A DNA stretch of 63,923 bases, the filler included, from Reclinomonas americana ATCC 50394 (lineage: Eukaryota): NCBI GenBank assembly GCA_048213135.1. It is 6 parts of 5 records of this genome, joined end to end, with 100 filler letters (N's around TTAATTAATTAA, not from the genome) between each part and the next. Parts side by side here need not be neighbours in the genome. Positions count along the whole stretch, not along the records: positions 1 to 22,295 come from PS015408.1; 5 more parts are not named here. One strand, given 5' to 3'. This document shows, in pieces, positions 7,322 through 53,397 of this stretch. Every line of letters begins with the position of its first letter. Position 1 is the first letter of the stretch. Below the pieces are notes generated by a model. That model made no database searches. It saw only the letters and a list, made by a program, of their open reading frames with translations, and was not told the DNA's origin. The position numbers were made by a program, and so were the translations under genes.

Positions 7322-10300
7322 ATGTCGGTGCGTGCTTGTTTGTTCTCTCTTCCCTCCTCCTCTTCTGTGTGCTCACTCTCCTCCCACAGTTCTCTGTAAA
7401 TGTGAGTGCGGCGCATGATTCGTCGCTGTCGGTGGTGGTGGAGGGCATGTCGGCCATGTCCACTCTCGCGGACTTGCTGCACGAGGCCACACGCTTGCTG
7501 CGCGAGAAGAGTGGAGATGGGGAGATGGAGATTGTGGGAGTGGAGAAGCCGATGGCATTCGACTTGGAGCTCGTCGGTGTGACACCGCTCCGTGGACTCG
7601 GCATCAACTCATCTACTCATCTCGTCGTCCGTGTGACACTGGGCGTGGTGCTGCAGTCGAGTGGAGAAAGCGGGAGTGGGAGTGGAAGGCATGTGTCAGT
7701 GATTCATCCTCTGTGCACATCATGCATCTCACTCTCATGTCATCGCACAGCAACTCGGAGCGAGTGACTCGGTATGTTTTGCTTGTTTTCTTTCTCTCTC
7801 CTCCTTGGTCTTCTCTCGACGTGAGCGTGAGCACTGACTGTGTTTGTGTTGCGCACGCAGCATAATCAACTTTAATCGCATCAACATGGCCTTTGAGGTG
7901 GTGGAGGAGGCTGTGCGTCTCCGCTGTCAACGCGCACTGGCGCAGTTCAGTCGCGATCATCCCGACTTTGATGTGCGGGCGTGGACTCCGAGTTTCACGC
8001 CTGCTGGCTTGGATGCGATGGCCGTGAAGCGATGGCGTGAGCGACATGCTCCTCGCCACCCCTCTCGTGTTAAGCTGTTTGAGGAGAAGCAGCCGGTGGC
8101 GTTGCTCTGGCGTGCTGCATTTGACGCCGATCCCTTGTCCAAACCTCCGTGTGACGGCTTCGGCACGACAGAACTCTCGACAATCATGCTGTATGGTGGC
8201 CCCGTTCAGGATGACGGATTGCCAGCGTGTGATCGGAGTGCAGCTGTGGCCGAGCAACTGGATCTGCCGTCTGCAAACACTTACAGGTACCCGCGGCTTG
8301 TCTTTTTTTGTCCCATTCTTGCTTGCCTGCTTATTTTGCGCTGCTGCAGGCCTGTCGTGCCGAGTCCATCATGTTTGCCTCGACGGCCGATGTTGCTTCG
8401 CTCATCGAAGCTTTCTCTCCGCGGCGGCGGTGTCTGTGTTTCCCGCAATTCAAAGCGGGAGGCGCATACTATGTTCTCCGTCGACCAGTCTGACAGAGAT
8501 GACTCGCCACCTTCACCACTGCTGTCATGGTCGTCTAGTTGCGAGTCTCTCACGCTGCCAGCATCAGCAGATCCACCACAACCATTGTTTCCTCCGATAT
8601 CCCCTCGGTCACCGTCGCCGCCTCCAGCGCTGTTGCAATTGCCTTCTCCACTGCCAGTATCGGCAGCCAAAGACGCTTTCTCTGTGGTCGTTTACACGGT
8701 GCATGATTCGTCGTTTTCTGTGACGGTGGAGGGCATGTCGGCCATGTCCACTCTCGCTGACTTGCTGCGTGAGGCCACTCGGTTGATGCGTGTGAAGAGT
8801 GGAGATGGGGAGATGGAGATTGTGGGAGTGGAGAAGCCAGCGCCGTATGACTTGGAGGATGCGAGTATGTTGAAATTGAAGTCCCTCGGCATCAACTCAT
8901 CCTTTCATCTCGTAGTCCGTCTGACACTTGGCGTGGCGCTGCAGTCGACATCGAGTGTAGGGAGTGAGGGTGGAAGGTGTGTGTGTTTGATTCATCTCTC
9001 TGTGCACAACATGTATTTCACTCCCTTGTTTTCGCGCAGCAACTCAGAGCGAGTGACTCGGTTTGTTTGCTTGCTGCTCGCACCTTCCTCTCTCCCTTCG
9101 TGTTCTTCCACTCGGTATGAGTCAGGTGCTGATTGTGTTTGTGTGCACGCGCAGCATGATCAACTCGCAGCGCATCAACATGGCATTTGATATTGTGGAA
9201 GAGGCTGTTCGTCTGCGCTGTCAACGCGCACTGGCGCAGTTCAGTCGCGACCACCCCGACTTTGATGTGCGAGCATGGGTGCCGGGTTACACGCCTGCCG
9301 ACATGGATGCGGTAGCGGTGAAGACATGGCGCGAGCGACATGTTCCACTCCACCCGTCTCGAGTCAAGTTGTTTGCGGAGAAGCAGCCAGTGGTGTTGGC
9401 CTGGCGTGCTGAATTGGACGCGGACCCCTCATCCGACCCGTCGTGTTCCGGACTCGACACGACGGCGCTCACCTCTATCATGATGAATGGTGGCTTTGTT
9501 GAGGATGACGGTCGCAAGCTGCTGCTGATTGGCAATGCCGATGAACGGAAGGCAGTCGATGAGCTGCACAGTGTCAGGAACAAGCTGAGACACGATGAGT
9601 TGCCGTTGACGGATGTCAGTGTGCAGCAGTACCTTGGTGACGTTGGTGTCTTCCTTTCTATCCTCTCTCGACTGCAGGTGACGGCCGATGAGCGTGATCG
9701 ATTCTCTGCTCGCATTTGTGAGGCACGTCACGCTCGACACATTGTGGACACGTTCGATGAGCGACTGCATCGACTGGCTGTGCGTGAGCTCTCCTTCTAC
9801 CGGCACGACGAGAGTGTGCGCAAGGACATGCAGATGTATGTGCCACTGCTGTGCTCACGCGATCGTGACGTCTCGTCGAGTGACAAGATGACGGATCTGT
9901 TGACGGAGGTGGATGCTTTCCTCTCCGACACCAACACCACTCAGCGCGTGTTGGTTCTCTTCGGCAACAGCGGGGCCGGCAAGACCACCACTATGTCCGT
10001 GCTGGCCGAGCGAGCATGGCGACAGTGGCAGACGAGAGAGAGTCGACGAGTACCTGTGCGTGTGCCTCTTGGTGCTCTGCGCAATGCCGATGAGCGATTG
10101 CTGGAAGAGGCACTGGAGCGACTGTCACCTGAGTTGGGACTGGAGTCGGATGTGCGACGGTTGAAGGAGGAACCACTGCTGTTGTTGCTTGACGGGTACG
10201 ATGAGCTGTATCGTGGTGTGAATCTGTTTGTCAAGAACCAGCTGGATGTGTGTCGCGATGTCAAGGTGATTATCACCTGTCGAGGCGACTATGCTTTGAC

Positions 10301-13300: not shown

Positions 13301-13460
13301 GCGTCGAAACACTCACGGGCTTGTGGAACGTATTCTCGGCACCGTCTTGCCCGATTTCACCAACGCGCTTGGTGTTGCGGATGGCGTCGGCCGTGAGGAA
13401 GTGACCGACGAGGGGGACGGGGGCGACGAAGAGGAGGAAGAAAGAGTCTCAGTTCGATGA
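7322..13460 (+). CDS. NLR-like STAND protein: UBL - truncated HEPN-like - linker - UBL - putative HEPN - NACHT - pentapeptide - 14 WD40; exons 7322-7327, 7390-7688, 7751-7771, 7861-8976 (possible 63-nt intron 8287-8349), 9040-9060, 9155-13460
   Basis: Walker A GNSGAGKTT (~9963), Walker B LLLLLDGYDE, IITCR, NPFLL, AAANAATVL followed by pentapeptides (DLSGARVRDADLRDA), 42-aa GH..WS repeats. RNKLRH at 9576-9593. Exon structure is mirrored by the paralog at 48570-53397. Confidence 0.9.
11438..13170 (+). repeat. 14 tandem ~126-bp WD40-coding repeats with high internal identity
   Basis: Repeated GHTxxVxAVAVTPDGQHIVSGSxDxTVRVWSxASGEEVRRLE units. Confidence 0.95.
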
Positions 13461-14334: not shown

Positions 14335-17281
14335 NNNNNNNNNNNNNNNNNNNNNNNNNNNNNNNNNNNNNNNNNNNNNNNNNNNNNNNNNNNNNNNNNN
14401 NNNNNNNNNNNNNNNNNNNNNNNNNNNNNNNNNNNNNNNNNNNNNNNNNNNNNNNNNNNNNNNNNNNNNNNNNNNNNNNNNNNNNNNNNNNNNNNNNNNN
14501 NNNNNNNNNNNNNNNNNNNNNNNNNNNNNNNNNNNNNNNNNNNNNNNNNNNNNNNNNNNNNNNNNNNNNNNNNNNNNNNNNNNNNNNNNNNNNNNNNCTC
14601 TCTCTCTCTCTATAGATCGACCTCTGAGACCATCGATCGTCATTCTTGAGATCTCTTGCGCACCATTTCTCGTGAAGAGCACGAGAGGAGAGCGAGCGAT
14701 TGCCAATTCTTGCAGTGCAGTATGAGACACTGAGGGAAAGAGAAAGCACGATTGATTAGGAAGCCACAGTTATTTGCCTTGCAGAGAGCTAGTCGATGTC
14801 TTTGGTGACCGCGAAGGAAAAAGAAACGGCAGCGATCCTCGCGACTCACAGTCTCCTTTGCCCTTCCCTCCCTCTCCCTCCTCCTCTCTCTCCGCAGGGC
14901 GCCATCTCCTCCTCCGGCCTCTCCGCCTGCACCTCCTCCCAGTACTTCAACATGGCCACCATGTCGTGCACCGACTGCTTCTCCGTCGGCTACGAACCCG
15001 ATCCAACCACCCTCTACACGTCATGTCGATGCGCCGAGGGCTATCAGGCGGTGTGGCCCATGGATGATACCTCGAACAGGTAAAGCACGCAGACACAGGG
15101 ACTGTTTCGTCTACTCGCGTTGGTGCTGTCCGTGTCTCAGTTGTGGCAGAGTGCTCTCTAATTGTCGTCACTTTGAGCGATTCCCCTGCGTTTTGCAACT
15201 GCTGTCATTCTCACCCCCTCGCCCTTCCCTTTTCCTCCCTTCTCCCTCCCCTCCCTCAGTCTCGGCTTCACCTGCAAGGCCTGCGGCGCCAACACCGGCT
15301 CTACTGCCGATCGCCTCCGCTGCGTCGAATGCACCGGCAGCGGCGTGGGCTTCACCACTGGCGTCGGCTGCACCTGCGCAGCAAACTCGGGTCAGGCTCT
15401 GTTCGAAACAGATGCGGCCGGCAACGCACTGGCCAAACCCGTGTGCCTCTCGTGCCCGTCCAATATGTATGTGTCGGCAACTGATCGGTGAGATAACAAG
15501 CCTTCTCTCCGTCGCGCTGCTCCTCTTTCCGTCGCTCTGCTCGTCTCTCCTTGCTCCTCTTTCCGTCGCTCTGCTCCTCTCTCCATCGCTCTGCTCCTCT
15601 CTCCTCGTCGCTCTGCTCCACTTTCTCCGTCGCTCTGCTCCTCTCTCCATCGCTGTGCTCCTCTCTCCTCGTCGCTCTGCTCCTCTCTCCTCGTCGCTCT
15701 GCTCCACTTTCTCCGTCGCTCTGCTCCTCTCTCCATCGCTGTGCTCCTCCTCTCCTTGTCGCTCTGCTCCTCCTCTCTCCATGCTCTCTCTCCCCGCTCG
15801 CTCTGCTCTCTCTCCGCTCGCTCTTTTCTCTCCGCTCCTGCTCGCTCTGCTCTCTCTCTGCTCTCTCTCCGCTCGTTCTACTCTCTCTCCGCTCGCTCTA
15901 CTCTCTCTCCATCGCTGTGCTCCTCCTCTCCTTGTCGCTCTGCTCCTCCTCTCTCCATGCTCTCTCTCCGNNNNNNNNNNNNNNNNNNNNTTCGCTCTGC
16001 TCTCTCTCCGTTCGCTCTGCTCTCTCTCCGTTCGCTCTGCTCTCTCTCCGTTCGCTCTGCTCTCTCTCCGTTCGCTCTGCTCTCTCTCCGTTCGCTCTGC
16101 TCTCTCTCCGTTCGCTCTGCTCTCTCTCCGCTCGCTCTGCTCCCTCTCTCCACTCGCTCTGCTCTCTCCCTCCCCTTCCCCCTCTCTTCCCTCTCTTCCC
16201 TCCCTTCCTCCACCCCCCTCCTCCGTTTCCCTTCCTTCCCCCACCCTCCCCCTCTCCCTCACCCTTCCCCCTCCTCCCCCTTTCCCCCTTACCCCTTCCC
16301 CCTTCCCCCCACACAGCCGCCGCTGCACCCCCTGCGGCGACTGGCGCATGACCCGCGTCGGCAACACCTGCACCTGCCCCGACCCCCTCGCCCAAACCGG
16401 CGGCGAATGCGTCCTCGCCACCGCCCTCTCCACCCTCCAACAGCGCTTCCCCTCCGCCTCCACCATCTCCTTCCTCGACGGCGCCGGCGTCAACGCCGCG
16501 CAATCTTCACTCTTTGCCAACGTGTTCCCGCTGGCCGCCATTCGCTGCGCCGTCGAGGGCTCCTCGCGCCACTGCGTGCAGCTGGCCAATCTGTGCGCCC
16601 TGCGCCTCTACGACACGTCGTCGCCGGCCTGCATTGCGCTGGACGAGGTCACGGCGGCGCAGCAGACGTCGAACAGCAACGGATTCACCGGCTGGCCGGC
16701 GTCGCCAGTGCCGTGGGCGCGCTATCGCTCCGCCAGTGATTTGACCGCGGGCGTCGGTTTCTCACAGTCGGTGTCGTTTGACGGGGACTTGTCGCATTTG
16801 CGGTTGTGGGTCGCCGCCTTTAACATGACCGGGTTTCATGTGGGGACGTACAGGGTGTCCAATGAGACGCAGGTGGGCGGAGGGAAGGAATGGGGGAAGG
16901 GGGTAGAAGGGGAAGGACTGAGGGAGAGGGAGAGGAAGGGAGAGGGGGAGGGGGAGGGCGAGGGAGAGGGCGAGGGATGAGGGAGAGGGAGAGGGAGAGG
17001 GAGAGGGGATTAATGAAGGAGAGAAAGAGGGAGAGAGGAGAAAGAGAGAGGGATAGTGAGTCTGATAGAGTTCTGGGTGCATGCTCTCCATATCCGCTGT
17101 TCGTAAATAGAACGATGCATCAACTTCGATCGAAGCATCAGTGAGCAGGAGAGGAGACTCGGAACACGATAGTGCTGTCAGTTTCGCTTCTGTCTCCTTG
17201 TCCTTGCTGTTCTCGCTCTCGCTTACTGATTGTATGTTTGTCTCCCTCTCCTTGCTGTCTCTCTCAACCTTTCCCTCAACT

Positions 17282-43300: not shown

Positions 43301-44188
43301 ATCCACCGCCTCCTCCGGGAAGTGCGACATTAGCCGCTCAAACATCGACCGCTCGAGGCCATCGAGCAGCGGCGCACGCGTCACCGCATCCAAGCAGTGC
43401 ACGACCGGTCGCAGCTGCTTGGCGTCGCCGGCCAGGATGAAGCGTGTCGGGCGGTGCGGTCCGACCAGGCAGCTAATGGCCTGCACGGTCTCCGGCTCGG
43501 TGCAGAAGCCGGCCTCGTCGACGATGATGTGGGTGAAGTGGCAGGAGGGGATGCCCATGGCCACCAGGGTGGCTGGAGAGGGAAAGGGGAGATAGGGGAA
43601 GGAGATGATTGAAGAGAACGAGAGGGAGAGAGAGAAAAAANNNNNNNNNNNNNNNNNNNNCGCGCAGCGCCTGCAACCTCCTCGTGGAACGCCTCGACAG
43701 CGTCTTCCCGCACTCCACCGACATGCTGCGCCTCTACGCCCGCTCGTACGCGCCACACACCCTCCCGCCCGTGATTCGTCGCCACTGCATCCTCGACGAC
43801 AGCCGCGGCATGTTCATGACGGACGAGTTCACGCTGCAGGAGCACGTGTTGCCGGCCAAGGTCATCGTGTGCACGCTGTCGGTGGCAAGTGCGTCAGCTG
43901 ATTCCCTTGCCTCAATTCTTAACGCTTCATTGACTGACTTGTGTCTGTTTGTCTCTCTCTCTCTCTCTCCCCTTCTCATTGTCATACTGGTTAATGTCAT
44001 CTCCCCTGCTGTGTTCTTCACTGATGTCCTGTCGATTATTTATCTCTGATGTCTCTCTCGTCGTTTGTTTCATGCTCTCCCGTCTTCTGTCTCTCTCCTC
44101 TCTTGCTGTCTTCTCCACTGGCATCCTTGTTTCTGATTCCTCCTCTCTTTCATTTGTCTCTCTCCTCTCGTTTGTCCACGCTTCTCTC

Positions 44189-44256
<68 letters not shown>

Positions 44257-45447
44257 NNNNNNNNNNNNNNNNNNNNNNNNNNNNNNNNNNNNNNNNNNNN
44301 NNNNNNNNNNNNNNNNNNNNNNNNNNNNNNNNNNNNNNNNNNNNNNNNNNNNNNNNNNNNNNNNNNNNNNNNNNNNNNNNNNNNNNNNNNNNNNNNNNNN
44401 NNNNNNNNNNNNNNNNNNNNNNNNNNNNNNNNNNNNNNNNNNNNNNNNNNNNNNNNNNNNNNNNNNNNNNNNNNNNNNNNNNNNNNNNNNNNNNNNNNNN
44501 NNNNNNNNNNNNNNNNNNNNNNNNNNNNNNNNNNNNNNNNNNNNNNNNNNNNNNNNNNNNNNNNNNNNNNNNNNNNNNNNNNNNNNNNNNNNNNNNNNNN
44601 NNNNNNNNNNNNNNNNNNNNNNNNNNNNNNNNNNNNNNNNNNNNNNNNNNNNNNNNNNNNNNNNNNNNNNNNNNNNNNNNNNNNNNNNNNNNNNNNNNNN
44701 NNNNNNNNNNNNNNNNNNNNNNNNNNNNNNNNNNNNNNNNNNNNNNNNNNNNNNNNNNNNNNNNNNNNNNNNNNNNNNNNNNNNNNNNNNNNNNNNNNNN
44801 NNNNNNNNNNNNNNNNNNNNNNNNNNNNNNNNNNNNNNNNNNNNNNNNNNNNNNNNNNNNNNNNNNNNNNNNNNNNNNNNNNNNNNNNNNNNNNNNNNNN
44901 NNNNNNNNNNNNNNNNNNNNNNNNNNNNNNNNNNNNNNNNNNNNNNNNNNNNNNNNNNNNNNNNNNNNNNNNNNNNNNNNNNNNNNNNNNNNNNNNNNNN
45001 NNNNNNNNNNNNNNNNNNNNNNNNNNNNNNNNNNNNNNNNNNNNNNNNNNNNNNNNNNNNNNNNNNNNNNNNNNNNNNNNNNNNNNNNNNNNNNNNNNNN
45101 NNNNNNNNNNNNNNNNNNNNNNNNNNNNNNNNNNNNNNNNNNNNNNNNNNNNNNNNNNNNNNNNNNNNNNNNNNNNNNNNNNNNNNNNNNNNNNNNNNNN
45201 NNNNNNNNNNNNNNNNNNNNNNNACAAGGGGGAAAGGGGTGAGGGGCAGAAGGGAAGAGAAGGGAGAAGGAGGGAGAAAAGGGATAGAGGGTGAGGGGAG
45301 GGACGGGAAGAAGGATGAAGTCAAAGGTGAGAAAGAGAAGTAGGGAGACAAAGAGCAACTTATAAAAGAGAGAGAGAGAGAGAGACGAAATCAACAGATG
45401 AGTCGAACTGCAAATCACACAAGAGGTCTAGGACTGGTAGCGAGAAA

Positions 45448-48569: not shown

Positions 48570-51500
48570 TCACATCATGGAACATCGAACTCTGAATCTC
48601 TCGTCCTCCTCGCCACACTCAGCACCAATCGCGTTGGTGAAATCGGGCAAGACGGTGCCGATGATGCGTTCCACAAGCCCGCGACTGTTTCGACGCATCA
48701 GTTGAATCGCACTGCCAGACACACGGGCGGTGTACGCAGAACCGAACGCCAAGCGGCGAAGATAAGTCACATGATTCGCCGAAGGGTCCACGAGTTCCGC
48801 CTGCTCATCAAGAGGCACTTCTTTTCCAGTCGACAGTGACCACACACGTACTTCTCCGCGACCAGTGCCACTCACGATGTACTTACCATCGGGAGTGACA
48901 TCGACAGAGTGCACCCCACTAGTGTGTCCCTCCAGTCGTCGCACTTCCTTTCCACTTGCCAGTGACCACACTCGCACTGTGCCGTCCCAACTCCCACTTA
49001 CGAGAAGCTGACCATCGGGAGTGACGGCGACAGACACTACACTGCCTGTGTGTCCCTCCAGTCGGCGCACCTCCTCGCCGCTAGCCAGCGACCACACTCG
49101 CATTGTGCTGTCACGACTCCCACTCACAAGCTGCTGACCGTCAGGAGTGACGGCGACACAGTTCACCCATTCGCCGTGTCCCTCCAACCGCCACAACTCA
49201 TTTCCACTCGCCAATGACCATACCCGCACTGTGTTGTCCCCACCTCCGCTGAGAATGCGCTGACCGTCAGGAGCGACGACAACACAGTCCACACATTGAG
49301 TGCGGCCTTCAAACCGCCGCAACTCATCTCCACTCGCCAATGACCACACTCGCACCGTCTTGTCACGGCCTCCACTGACAATGTACTGACCATTGGGAGT
49401 GACGGTGACACACGTTACACAATCACTGCGCCCCTCAAATCGTCGCACTTCTTCTCCACGATCCAAAGACCACACCAGAATAGACCCGTTCTCACCCCCA
49501 CTCACAGCGTGTTGACCATCTGGAGAAACAGTAAATGCGGAGGACTGTCCTGCCACCTTCCACAATTCCTCGCCTGTTGACAGTGACCACAGCCTCACAG
49601 TGCCATCATCACCGGCACTCACAACGTGCTGACAGTCGTGGGTGAGCACAACTGAATGCACCGATCCGGTGTGTCCGCCCAACCGTCGCACACCTTCATC
49701 ACCTATCACAGACCACATTCGTACTGTCTTATCTATACTCCCACTCACGATATACTGACCGTCAGGAGTAACTGTAACTGAACGCAATTGACCAGTATGT
49801 CCCTCCAACCGCCGCACCTCTCCGCCACTCGCCAGTGACCAAAGTCGCACTGTCGAGTCCCTACCACCGCTGACGACATGCTGCCCATCGGGAGTGACGG
49901 CGACAGCGAATACCCAACCCGTATGGCCTTCCAGTCGGCGCACCTCCTCGCCACTCGCAATGGACCACACCCGTACAGTCTCGTCCTCACTGCCACTCAC
50001 AATACGCTGGCCATCTGGAGTGACAGCGACTGAACTTACCCTGTCTGTGTGGCCTTCCAGTCGGCGCACCTCCTCGCCACTTGCCATTGACCACACTCGT
50101 ACAGTCTTGTCCCAACTGCCACTCACAATGTGTTGGCCATCGGGTGTTACTGCCACTGCCCACACCCCATCCGTGTGGCCATCCAGTCGGCGCACCTCCT
50201 CGCCACTTCCCAACGACCACACCCGCACAGTCATGTCATAACTGCCACTCACAATGTGCTTGCCATCAGGTGTCAAAGCCACTGCAAGCACCCAATCCGT
50301 GTGGCCTTCCAGTCGGCACACCTCCTCGCCAGTTGCCATCGACCACACTCGTACAGTCTCGTCCCAACTGCCACTGACAACATGCTGACCATTGGGTGTC
50401 ACTGCCACTGCAGTCACCACACTCGTGTGGCCTTCCAGTCGGCGCATCTCCTTGCCACTTGCCATCGACCACACCCGAACAGTCATATCGTGACTGCCAC
50501 TAACAATGTGCTGCCCATCGGGTGTCACGGCCACTGCAGACACCTCTCTCGTGTGACTCACCATCGGCTTCCTCGGCCACTTCACGCCTGTCACATCCGC
50601 CCCTCTGAAATCCGCCTCCCTCGCATACGCCATGCACACATTTACCCCTTGCAAATCCGCTCCCCTCCACACCGTCCGGTGCATCACCGCATCCCTCAAA
50701 TCCGCACCCCTCACTCGCACACCCGACAGATCTCGCCCACTGAATGACACTTGTGCCACACACAGCACCGTTGCTGCATTCGCTGCTGCCGTCACCACCC
50801 GCTCCTCATCCACCACACGTGACAACTCAATCACCTCCCACAGTCTCGCTTGCAACGCAGAAGACCGTCGCACGACCTCGGCCATCTGCTCAATCAATGA
50901 TGGTCTGTCGTTCAGAAGTCGCACTGCCAACACATGCTGTTGCACATCTTGCACCGTCAATCTCCTCTCCTCATCCCACGTCTCCCACGCAACCACATGC
51001 CGAGCCACACAGTGCTCCAGCAACGACAGATGCACGAATCCCCACTGCGTCGTCCCAAACCGTCGCACAATCGGACAGCACACTCGCACATGCTGGTTCT
51101 TGTGACCAAGGAACTTGTCCAACGGTTCCTCTTCCACTCGTCGCAAAGCCAGTGGCGCACCACCAAAGTCATCCTCACTTGATCGACTCTCCGACACAGA
51201 CACACGCACAGCATTCCTCTCATGCATCGACCGTGCCAGTCCCTCACAGAACGAGAGACACGTCTCCTCACTCGGCACACGCTCCGCACCAAGACGCGTC
51301 TGTCTCTCCTGCTCCCTCATTATCCACTGTCGAATGAATCGGTCAAACACATCACACCGAGTCGGTCGCTGCACTCCATTCGCCACCAACTGCGGCAACA
51401 CACGAGCCACCACTGCCAGAAGGAACGGATTCGACACCAGCGCGTCCAGTCCATGTACACTCTTCAGCGCACGAATGTACTCAACGGCAGTCGACCATCG

Positions 51501-53397
51501 CACGTCACCGTCATGATCGTCACCACTCACTTGCACCAGTCGCTCAAAGTACTCCTCAATCTGCTCCCTGTTGAACGGTGCAATGTGTCGTTCCATCAGC
51601 TGCTGCATGCACAACTGTCCTCGTGCATCCACTGGTGCAAAGTATCGTCGATATTGTGCCACACCACCCAGTGCCGTCAGTGCGTAATCGCCGCGGCAGG
51701 TGATAATCACCTTCACATCGCGACACACATCCAACTGGTTCTTGACAAACAGATTCACACCACGGTACAACTCGTCGTACCCGTCAAGCAGCAACAGCAG
51801 TGGTTCCTCCTTCAACCGTCGCACATCAGCCTCCAATCCCAACTCGGGAGACAGTCGCTCCAGTGCCTCCTCCAACAGCCGCTCATCGGCAACGCGCAGA
51901 GCACCGAGAGGCACACGTACAGGCACTCGTCTGCTCTCTCTCGTCTGACAGTGTCGCCATGCTCGCTCAGCCAGCACCGACATGGTGGTGGTCTTGCCGG
52001 CGCCACTGTTGCCGAAAAGCACCAACACTCGCTGCGTGGTGTTGGCGTCGGAGAGGAAAACATCCACCTCCGTCAACAGATCCGTCATCTTGTCTTTCGA
52101 TGAGACGTCACGATCACGTGAACACAGCAGTGGCACATACATCTGCATATCCTTGCGCACACTCTCATCGTGCTGGTAGAACGAGAGCTCACGTACAGCC
52201 AGACGATGAAGTCGCTCTTCATAGGTGCTGATGATGTGCTGAACGTGACGCGCCTCTCGAATCCGCGCCGCAAAACCGTCAATCACGTCGCCAGGCAGCT
52301 GCAACTTGCCAAGGAAAGCAAGGAACGTGCCGTGGTCACCGAGATACTCTTCCACGCTGGCCGCTGTCCATGTCGACGAACCGTGTACCAACGCATTCCG
52401 CACTTCGCGTAACTGCTCCAGCGCCTTGCGCTCATCAAAATTGTCAATCAGCAGCAGCTTGCGACCGTCATCCAGAACAAAGCCACCAAACAGCATGACA
52501 GAAACGAGTGCCGTCGCGTCGAATGCGTCACGCGAGGGATCGGGGGCGGGTTCCGCGTCGAACGCAGACTTCCAGTCGAGCATGTGCTGCTGCTGCTGTG
52601 CAAACAACTTGACGCGACCGGGGTGGAGTGGTGCATGCTGATCGTACCACGCCTTAATTGTAGTTGGATGCCAGAACAACGGAGGCGTCCACACATCGGG
52701 GGTCCACGCCCGTACATCAAAGTCGGGATGGTCGCGACTGAACTGCGCCAGCGCGTTTTGACAGCGCAGACGCACGGCCTCCTCCACCACCTCGAAGGCC
52801 ATGTTGATGCGCTGCGAATTGATCATGCTGTGCATCCAGTGCTGTCAGCATCACAGAAAGAGCAATCAGGAGAGAGAGGAGGACAAGGGCAAGCAAAACG
52901 AACCGAGTCACTCGATCCGAGTTGCTGTGAAGCCATGAGAGTGAGTTGCATGGTGTGCACAGAGGATGACTCACTAACACATACCTTGCACTTCCACTCT
53001 CACTCCCTCCACTCGACTGCAACGCCACGCCAAGTGTCAGACGGAGGACGAGATGAGTGGATGAGTTGATGCCCAGAATGCGAAGCGGAATGCCACCACC
53101 CTCCTCAATGTTGAATGCCATTGGCTTCTCCACCCCCACAATCTCCACTGCCCCATCTCGACTCTTCTCACGCAGCAAGCGTGTGGCCTCGCGCAGCAAG
53201 TCCGCGAGAGTGGACATGGCCGACATGCCCTCCACCACCACCGACAGCGATGAATCGTGTGCTGCACTCACATGAACAGAGAACTGAGCACAGCAGAGCA
53301 CGGTGAGTGACAAGCGATGAGTGAGAGTGAGAGAAGACAAGGAGAAGCAAGCGAACAACAAGCGTCCCCCCACTCAATCAATACAACTCACCGACAT
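48570..53397 (-). CDS. NLR-like STAND protein: UBL - putative HEPN - NACHT - pentapeptide - 14 WD40; exons 53397-53392, 53283-52985, 52924-52904, 52827-48570
   Basis: Paralog of 7322-13460: GNSGAGKTT, LLLLLDGYDE, RNALVH (52383-52400), ubiquitin-like STHLVLRL, same intron positions. Confidence 0.92.

Follow-up and report, generated by a model that had tools for sequence, protein, structure and literature searches.

The stretch of Reclinomonas americana ATCC 50394 DNA analysed here (63,923 nucleotides of assembly GCA_048213135.1, referred to below as the window) contains a pair of spliced genes, A2 and its paralog B, whose products are best explained as molecular switches of the NOD-like receptor (NLR)-like STAND type. 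In this reading, to which we assign a probability of about 0.58, a ubiquitin-like domain and a divergent HEPN domain of the Swt1 type, with an intact Rx4H motif and an upstream helix carrying an aspartate, are followed by a NACHT NTPase, a segment with an AAANA motif and pentapeptide repeats, and two WD40 propellers, and the HEPN domain would act as a proximity-activated ribonuclease (RNase). The protein is thus probably a HEPN-armed NLR-like protein, and represents a new combination of parts each of which is already known. The window consists of joined parts of several R. americana records, and distances within it need not be genome distances; residues of the HEPN-like, NACHT and WD40 portions of A2 are numbered from the ATG at position 9180.

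Two long open frames define the gene pair. The first (9063-13460, plus strand) carries DTTALTSIM and ELHSVRNKLRH in its translation, and the second (48570-52835, minus strand) carries DATALVSVM and QLREVRNALVH, so that both motif pairs reported in an earlier note on this DNA are present in the frames to which they had been ascribed. The splice model of A2 (8471-8976, 9040-9060 and 9155-13460, plus strand) is open over 1610 amino acids (aa). Its first coding exon (8471..8976) most likely starts at the ATG at 8471, the start at 8675 proposed earlier falling inside this exon, and encodes a Ser/Pro-rich leader (8471-8668) and the ubiquitin-like candidate (about 8669-8956) before a GT donor at 8977. 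A microexon of 21 nt (CAACTCAGAGCGAGTGACTCG, 9040..9060) lies between GT-AG introns at 8977-9039 and 9061-9154, and the large last exon (9155..13460) encodes the HEPN-like domain, NACHT, a helical region, the pentapeptide repeats, the WD40 array and an acidic tail ending at the stop codon at 13458-13460. Paralog B, about 35 kb from A2 in joined-window coordinates, is built in the same manner on the minus strand, with exons at 53397-53392, 53283-52985 (ubiquitin-like), 52924-52904 (microexon) and 52827-48570; it is open over 1527 aa, with RNALVH at about 52400-52383. Searches of the window by tblastn recovered two full N-terminal domains, 61.6% identical between A2 and paralog B, together with one truncated N-terminal domain, three ubiquitin-like pieces and two NACHT domains. 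A2 and paralog B are real, intact, spliced eukaryotic genes with their domain order preserved. Decay to pseudogenes was rejected, since both full copies are open and show ratios of nonsynonymous to synonymous divergence (dN/dS) of 0.10-0.46 in every domain but the C-terminal tail (0.85), and bacterial contamination of the locus was rejected too, given its eukaryotic neighbouring genes, its GT-AG introns and the microexon.

The body of the receptor is readily recognised. The NACHT NTPase of A2 (aa 256-419; 9945..10436, plus strand) is matched by Pfam with E 8.3e-9 (35.9 bits against a cut-off of 26.7), and its Walker A (GNSGAGKT, about 9963-9986) and Walker B (DGYDE, 10191-10205) motifs, both on the plus strand, are intact, with G262, G265, G267, K268 and D338-E342 invariant across seven relatives. 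Downstream lie the AAANA motif, invariant in seven sequences, and the pentapeptide repeats (aa 677-745; 11208..11414, plus strand; Pfam Pentapeptide at aa 690-722, E 6.6e-5), followed by a WD40 array of 13-14 repeats (11415..13199, plus strand) which is detected by Pfam as 13 stretches (E 2.8e-143) and displays 14 W[SP][LVMI] signatures, enough for two seven-bladed propellers. The Pfam matches for NACHT, pentapeptide repeats and WD40 thus fall where the earlier note had placed these domains.

Relatives of this body allow the N-terminal portion to be delimited. A database search with aa 1-720 returned 11 proteins of 26-31% identity (best E 4.3e-41, 159 bits), and local BLASTP of the two best matches gave E 4.8e-49 to 8.4e-55; the named database relatives belong to Mortierellomycota (Benniella, Linnemannia and Mortierella). 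Similarity to the relatives begins at aa 209-232 or later, and the first ~208 residues therefore constitute a separate module, hereafter the head. In the equivalent position one of the relatives has a TIR_2 domain (E 7e-11) and another a kinase domain (protein kinase, E 4.9e-45), which identifies the N-terminal position as an effector slot, as had been proposed.

The same body is found in bacteria. An alignment-based scan of prokaryote genomes yielded 69 loci matching aa ~200-1336 with 22-36% identity (tblastn E down to 0), most of them (49/69) from metagenome-assembled genomes (MAGs) of Mycoavidus cysteinexigens and the other 20 from Legionellales, Chlamydiae, other Gammaproteobacteria, Myxococcota, Bacteroidota and one unclassified bacterium; a genome contig scan with a single NACHT sequence detected no relative. 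An open frame with a P-loop is present in 64 of the 69 loci. Among 51 bacterial N-termini of at least 120 aa, 13 contain ARM_5 and a few a weak TPR match, and an R[NDH]x3-5H string of some kind occurs in 7 of 64 bacterial N-termini. The body is heavily expanded in the Mycoavidus MAGs, and is also present in Legionella, Tatlockia, Coxiellaceae, Chlamydiae, Myxococcota and Bacteroidota MAGs, many of these being intracellular; one gammaproteobacterial chromosome harbours six body loci within about 75 kb.

The evidence that the head is a HEPN domain comes from its motifs and from profile comparison. In the 2013 HEPN survey (PMC3710099, Anantharaman et al. 2013), HEPN domains are described as having an acidic residue in helix 2 and an Rx4-6H motif at the end of helix 3, in which the R is usually followed by N, D or H. 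Both full copies display such a motif with a polar residue after R (RNKLRH in A2, RNALVH in the paralog) and an acidic residue upstream of it (D93 in A2, D95 in the paralog). Within the HEPN-like domain of A2 (aa 1-165; 9180..9674, plus strand), the DTTALTSIM helix (D93-M101; 9456..9482, plus strand) is a candidate for HEPN helix 2, and R133-N134-K-L-R-H138 (9576..9593, plus strand), an Rx4H with N after R, lies at the end of a predicted helix. Another string of this kind, RHVPLH (aa 53-58), was considered as a HEPN site and rejected, its R not being kept in the paralog.

Swt1-family templates were taken with the Pfam model PF18731 from bacterial genomes, 12 loci from 401 genomes and 30 from another 401, two further above-cut-off matches without a locus being omitted, and were compared by hhalign with a two-sequence profile of the full heads. 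With all 42 domains the score was 29.8 (P 2.2e-4, probability 45%), over 69 columns spanning aa 90-163 of the head at 25% identity. This score was reached by none of 100 column shuffles (maximum 24.0) and by none of 51 real helical N-termini (maximum 20.7). Taken singly, the two full heads scored 25.2 and 23.6, and the corresponding part of a truncated third copy, A1, which is devoid of the motif, scored 14.8 (P 0.057). With 12 domains the score was 23.6 (P 0.0047, probability 7.5%), or 22.2 (E 0.007, probability 5.5%) in a second run, and none of 200 column shuffles reached it (maximum 22.8). In the 42-domain alignment the DTTALTSIM helix falls on the D-x3-L column of Swt1, D93 being placed on a position that is D in 32/42 domains and the residue four positions on at one that is L in 40/42, and the second motif falls on the RNxWAH column, with R133, N134 and H138 on positions that are R in 41/42, N in 28/42 and H in 42/42 (Rx4H in 41/42). 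The spacing from D to R is 40 in the head and 33-40 in the Swt1 family, where 40 is found in one member only. The HEPN assignment is thus supported at the level of profiles. The helix with an aspartate ahead of RNx3H, described earlier as a mark of Swt1/DZIP3-like domains, is indeed a feature of the Swt1 domains; membership of the DZIP3 type has no Pfam match, and atlas look-alikes alone point to it. On these grounds the head probably adopts a HEPN fold, and the balance leans, less firmly, towards its being an active RNase.

The bacterial Swt1 domains add a parallel that speaks for the HEPN reading: in the six long open reading frames checked they are located N-terminal to NTPases, with DUF499 in two and SNF2 in four, in agreement with Table 1 in PMC3710099. 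The domains form visibly distinct groups, of which the DUF499-linked and SNF2-linked ones carry D-x3-L-L and RN[RK]WAH. A stand-alone bacterial Swt1 group of ~193 aa carries LR[AG]PIAH, devoid of the N, and the 120 database matches all stand alone, with lengths of 133-199 aa and mostly of ~193 aa.

The alternative that survives best concerns the gene model and not the head. It holds that the ubiquitin-like exon is a separate small upstream gene or an untranslated leader, and that the receptor starts at the ATG at 9156 or that at 9180, both possible translation starts, and has no ubiquitin-like domain. Against this, all three copies share one layout (ubiquitin-like exon, short intron, 21-nt microexon, second intron, big exon), with in-frame junctions, matching phases and GT-AG borders in 3/3 copies apart from a GC donor at the ubiquitin-like exon of A1. 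The microexon 21-mer, CAACTC[GA]GA[GT]CGAGTGACTCG, has two variable positions and is located at 7751, 9040 and 52904 (minus strand). The ubiquitin-like exon of A2 leads into the big exon in frame only if 9061-9154 is spliced out, via the microexon; read through, this second intron yields a pyrimidine-tract peptide that is out of frame. Moreover, conservation among the copies extends to the microexon and to the 24 nt that precede the ATG, which are open and code for the peptide MINSQRIN in both full copies, and the second intron is poorly kept. On the side of the alternative, the joins of the ubiquitin-like exon are predictions made from DNA sequence alone, the agreement of three splice layouts does not amount to independent evidence because the copies are duplicates, and the first intron (8977-9039) shows the same degree of conservation as the exons, with a length that is a multiple of three in two copies. 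A receptor devoid of the ubiquitin-like exon is accordingly a possibility to be kept in mind, if a doubtful one, and in the predicted splice model the exon is probably joined to the receptor.

That the exon encodes a ubiquitin-like fold is plausible. The pieces of the other copies are 69-72% identical to that of A2. In a protein atlas the top matches (0.91) are unnamed clusters, and the four displayed rows that have a family are all ubiquitin or Rad60-SLD (0.88-0.89), a result rated as a lead only. None of the three pieces has a Pfam match at E up to 10, a point which also favours the alternative gene model, and a PDB profile search gave chance-level matches only. The AlphaFold model of the exon begins with strand, strand and helix and has a confidence score (pLDDT) of 39.9, too low to speak for the fold. 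For the ubiquitin-like domain claimed in the earlier note, the sequence gives a predicted in-frame upstream exon in three copies, but neither a Pfam match nor a confident model of the fold.

The truncated copy A1 lies just upstream of A2 on the plus strand, and comprises 7322-7327 (ATGTCG), 7390-7688 (the ubiquitin-like exon with the GC donor), 7751-7771 and 7861-8286; it is open over this extent and then departs from the family sequence. By tblastn against the window, its HEPN-like part amounts to the first ~111 aa only (7886-8218) and has no RNx3H. A1 could read on via a possible intron at 8287-8349 into A2, in which case A1 and A2 might be one gene; A1 may thus be a separate gene, a pseudogene or the upstream part of A2. 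The ubiquitin-like exon of A1 looks closer to that of paralog B than to that of the adjoining A2.

A second alternative is that the head is a lineage-specific helical adaptor or oligomerisation domain and not a HEPN, that RNx3H and the helix with its aspartate arose by chance in a helical, Arg-rich sequence, and that signalling proceeds by protein-protein contacts. Several observations weigh in its favour and against the HEPN reading. When the heads of the two full copies were compared with the Pfam, PADLOC and NCBIfam libraries at E up to 10, six matches were obtained in total. The A2 head matched Pfam HEPN_Swt1 (PF18731; E 0.02, 15.6 bits against a cut-off of 27.5) and, at aa 12-59, CRISPR_Cse1, which is not a HEPN family (Pfam, E 0.067); the paralog head matched Pfam HEPN_RiboL-PSP (E 0.068) and, in PADLOC, RTasHEPN (E 7e-4) and CARF_HEPN twice (E 0.0019 and 0.035). 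All the HEPN scores are under the curated cut-offs, and the A2 head thus falls short of membership of Pfam HEPN_Swt1. The paralog head has no match to the Pfam HEPN_Swt1 model, the A2 head none in PADLOC, neither head has one in NCBIfam, and HEPN_DZIP3 (PF18738) was reported by Pfam for neither copy. The hhalign probability was at most 45%, and only 5.5-7.5% with the 12-domain template, for which one of the 51 real helical N-termini, all from bacterial relatives of the body, scored 23.4, above the single-copy values of 22.4 and 22.6. The alignment covers helix 2 to helix 4 only, leaving helix 1 unplaced and 65 extra residues before the helix with the aspartate. The AlphaFold model of the domain, built on a three-row alignment, has a pLDDT of 43.0, and a PDB profile search with the head gave chance-level matches only. 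The head also has no relatives with which conservation could be tested: phmmer found 0 matches in 1,835,955,588 representative proteins, a word-indexed profile search of 8000 candidates (73-384 aa) yielded nothing at E up to 10, and viral and metagenome contig scans found none. Conservation of R, N and H therefore rests on two paralogs, and being 56% identical in this stretch these make it weak evidence by itself, which the profile comparison lifts above chance. Finally, most relatives of the body carry non-enzymatic helical heads (ARM_5 in 13/51), and a HEPN family was detected in none of the 51 bacterial heads at E up to 0.001.

An adaptor does not readily account for the remaining observations. 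The two motifs lie in the same order as the conserved Swt1 columns onto which they map, at a spacing like that of the family, the 42-domain score was attained neither by the 100 shuffles nor by the 51 real controls, and the truncated A1, devoid of the motif, fails to score. With the 12-domain template, all 51 real N-termini had P-values less extreme than those of the query heads. Five of the six weak library matches are to HEPN families, all five on aa 118-159. The helices of the AlphaFold model (94-103, 122-137, which ends at the motif, and 145-164, with a hairpin-like insert at 107-114) agree with the HEPN layout, a four-helix core in which an insert separates helices 2 and 3, and are but a hint because of the low pLDDT. 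We therefore regard the adaptor as an unlikely explanation. Atlas look-alikes of the head (0.91-0.94) also count on the side of HEPN: the nearest clusters are cnidarian and molluscan proteins, and in two of them HEPN_DZIP3 is carried by 11-38% of the members, although no family is common to the top cluster and another has only DUF4559; one bacterial cluster has HEPN_Swt1 on 20% of its members. The atlas recognition value of the head is 2130, under the 2300 reached by most known families.

A third possibility, that the head is a true HEPN fold which binds RNA or regulates but does not cleave, as proposed for eukaryotic Swt1, whose HEPN dyad is described as probably inactive and RNA-sensing (PMC3710099), is improbable, given that neither full copy has lost the Rx4H, with its N after R, or the upstream D, and that the inactive HEPN domains discussed in that survey are those lacking these residues (PMC3710099).

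If the HEPN-armed switch is the correct reading, a mechanism may be outlined by analogy with NLR and STAND proteins and with dimeric HEPN RNases. Binding of a ligand by the WD40 propellers would release NACHT to oligomerise, and this would pair the HEPN domains so as to form a composite, metal-independent RNase site. The ensuing RNA cleavage could lead to growth arrest of the cell or to restriction of an invader. The ubiquitin-like domain might serve in regulation or docking of the protein.

Each part of this architecture has precedents. NOD-like receptors with the order NACHT, pentapeptide repeats and WD40, under the name NACHT-PPR-WD40, have been reported as common to Mortierellomycota and Mycoavidus (PMC11291939, Evol Lett 2024; PMC9815663, PLoS Comput Biol 2022). 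They resemble A2 from the segment preceding NACHT to the end (NACHT, helical region, AAANA, pentapeptide repeats, WD40), at 24-36% identity, but the heads of relatives of this type are ARM_5 or long helical, TPR, TIR, kinase or absent, whereas that of A2 consists of a ubiquitin-like piece and a HEPN-like domain that is an orphan, and its host is a eukaryote that has spliceosomal introns and a gene for a cilium protein.

HEPN domains preceding NACHT are known from animals, in which DZIP3/hRUL138-like and CXorf38-like HEPN domains are fused to NACHT with LRR, TPR or WD40; lineage-specific expansions of HEPN-NACHT, the protist Capsaspora included, and a predicted role as RNase effector of an NLR-like protein are described in the same survey (PMC3710099), and more than 50 HEPN-NACHT genes have been reported for the pearl oyster (PMC9646362). 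A2 resembles these proteins in that a HEPN domain, a probable one in A2, with Rx4H and usually an N next to the R, stands N-terminally in front of NACHT and a repeat sensor. It differs from them in that its best family is Swt1-like and not HEPN_DZIP3, and in that its body, which includes pentapeptide repeats, belongs to the bacterial/Mortierella type.

In bacteria, Swt1 HEPN domains precede NTPases in an Ava_2192 type with DUF499 and in an SNF2-fused type, and HEPN-STAND proteins occur as well (Table 1 in PMC3710099); HEPN is also listed among the effectors of bacterial NACHT proteins (Kibby et al., bioRxiv 10.1101/2022.07.19.500537). Common to A2 and the bacterial Swt1 proteins are the D-x3-L helix, about 35-40 residues further the second motif (RNxWAH in the bacterial domains), and the position before an NTPase; however, the likeness is at the profile level only, the partner in A2 is a NACHT with WD40, and the A2 gene is eukaryotic and spliced.

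Fungal HET-E and HET-D consist of HET, NACHT and WD40, and the WD40 repeats within one such protein are highly similar to each other. They share with A2 the layout of effector, NACHT and WD40 and the mutual similarity of the WD40 repeats, but have a HET effector, and neither pentapeptide repeats nor HEPN. The word HEPN is absent from the main text of a survey of fungal NLR effectors (PMC9815663). Sacsin likewise combines a ubiquitin-like domain with a HEPN domain in a single chain (Table 1 in PMC3710099), but at opposite ends of a giant chaperone-like protein without NACHT, and its HEPN belongs to another family.

A literature search for HEPN with NLR in protists found nothing, and one for Swt1, HEPN and NACHT together found only the 2013 HEPN survey (PMC3710099). 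A protein combining ubiquitin-like, HEPN, NACHT, pentapeptide and WD40 parts, or a HEPN head on a body of the Mortierella/Mycoavidus type, is not described in the examined passages of the papers on HEPN and NACHT, the supplementary tables of which may list one. The earlier note had not recognised the full architecture from characterised proteins; the combination as such has indeed not been met in these passages, but HEPN-NACHT in animals and bacteria, and the body in Mortierellomycota and Mycoavidus, are already in print.

The two full copies are under purifying selection and have diverged unevenly. The N-terminal modules of A2 and the paralog show 60% aa identity with a synonymous divergence (dS) of 0.88 and dN/dS 0.33, the NACHT domains 93% identity with dS 0.38 and dN/dS 0.10, and the WD40 arrays 76% identity with dS 0.34 and dN/dS 0.43. 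Along the aligned genes (9180-13457 against 48573-52802) dS is thus a mosaic, at 0.88 in the head, 0.25-0.38 from NACHT through WD40 and 0.20 in the tail at the C-terminus. The raised dS of the head points to one of two histories, a body homogenised by gene conversion or heads of greater age.

It is tempting to go further and to suppose that a non-animal eukaryote took up a NACHT-pentapeptide-WD40 body that circulates in early fungi and in intracellular bacteria (Mycoavidus, Legionellales, Chlamydiae), and equipped it anew with an orphan HEPN RNase of its own and a ubiquitin-like domain; a ciliated organism, single-celled or simple, would thus possess a functional NLR that cleaves RNA. A1, with its ubiquitin-like piece and half a HEPN lacking the catalytic motif, would then be a decoy or inhibitor of HEPN dimerisation. 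We offer this scenario, judged from sequence comparisons, as a tentative one that may well prove wrong. An active RNase in the head would nonetheless mean an RNase-armed NLR outside animals and bacteria, on a receptor body otherwise known from endosymbiotic or intracellular bacteria and fungal hosts. It would tie together bacterial HEPN-STAND defence, the animal HEPN-NACHT expansions and the exchange of NOD-like receptors between hosts and symbionts, and the compact, intron-poor gene pair would be suited to the study of proximity-induced HEPN activation. Having no detectable relative in 1.84 billion proteins, the head would moreover widen the range of sequences known for Swt1-like HEPN domains. 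Were the head merely a helical adaptor, the locus would be an ordinary further pair of NACHT-WD40 paralogs.

The remainder of the window was surveyed for context. It contains 4110 N, with several assembly gaps (about 4000-5477, 14335-14597, near 36150, 44000-45400 and 54036) that often adjoin (GA)n, (CT)n or homopolymer runs, and the low-GC windows in the composition profile are due to these gaps. Two ankyrin-repeat genes with similar N-termini were noted among the frames at 32909-34720 (minus strand), 35488-36864 (plus strand) and 36041-38389 (plus strand), and downstream of one of these genes, on the far side of an assembly gap, lies a TPR_12/TPR_10 frame; none of the three showed a P-loop. 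A frame at 15064-16977 (plus strand) matches Meckelin (TMEM67), a protein of the ciliary transition zone, with E 1.7e-13, and the organism therefore probably builds cilia or flagella.

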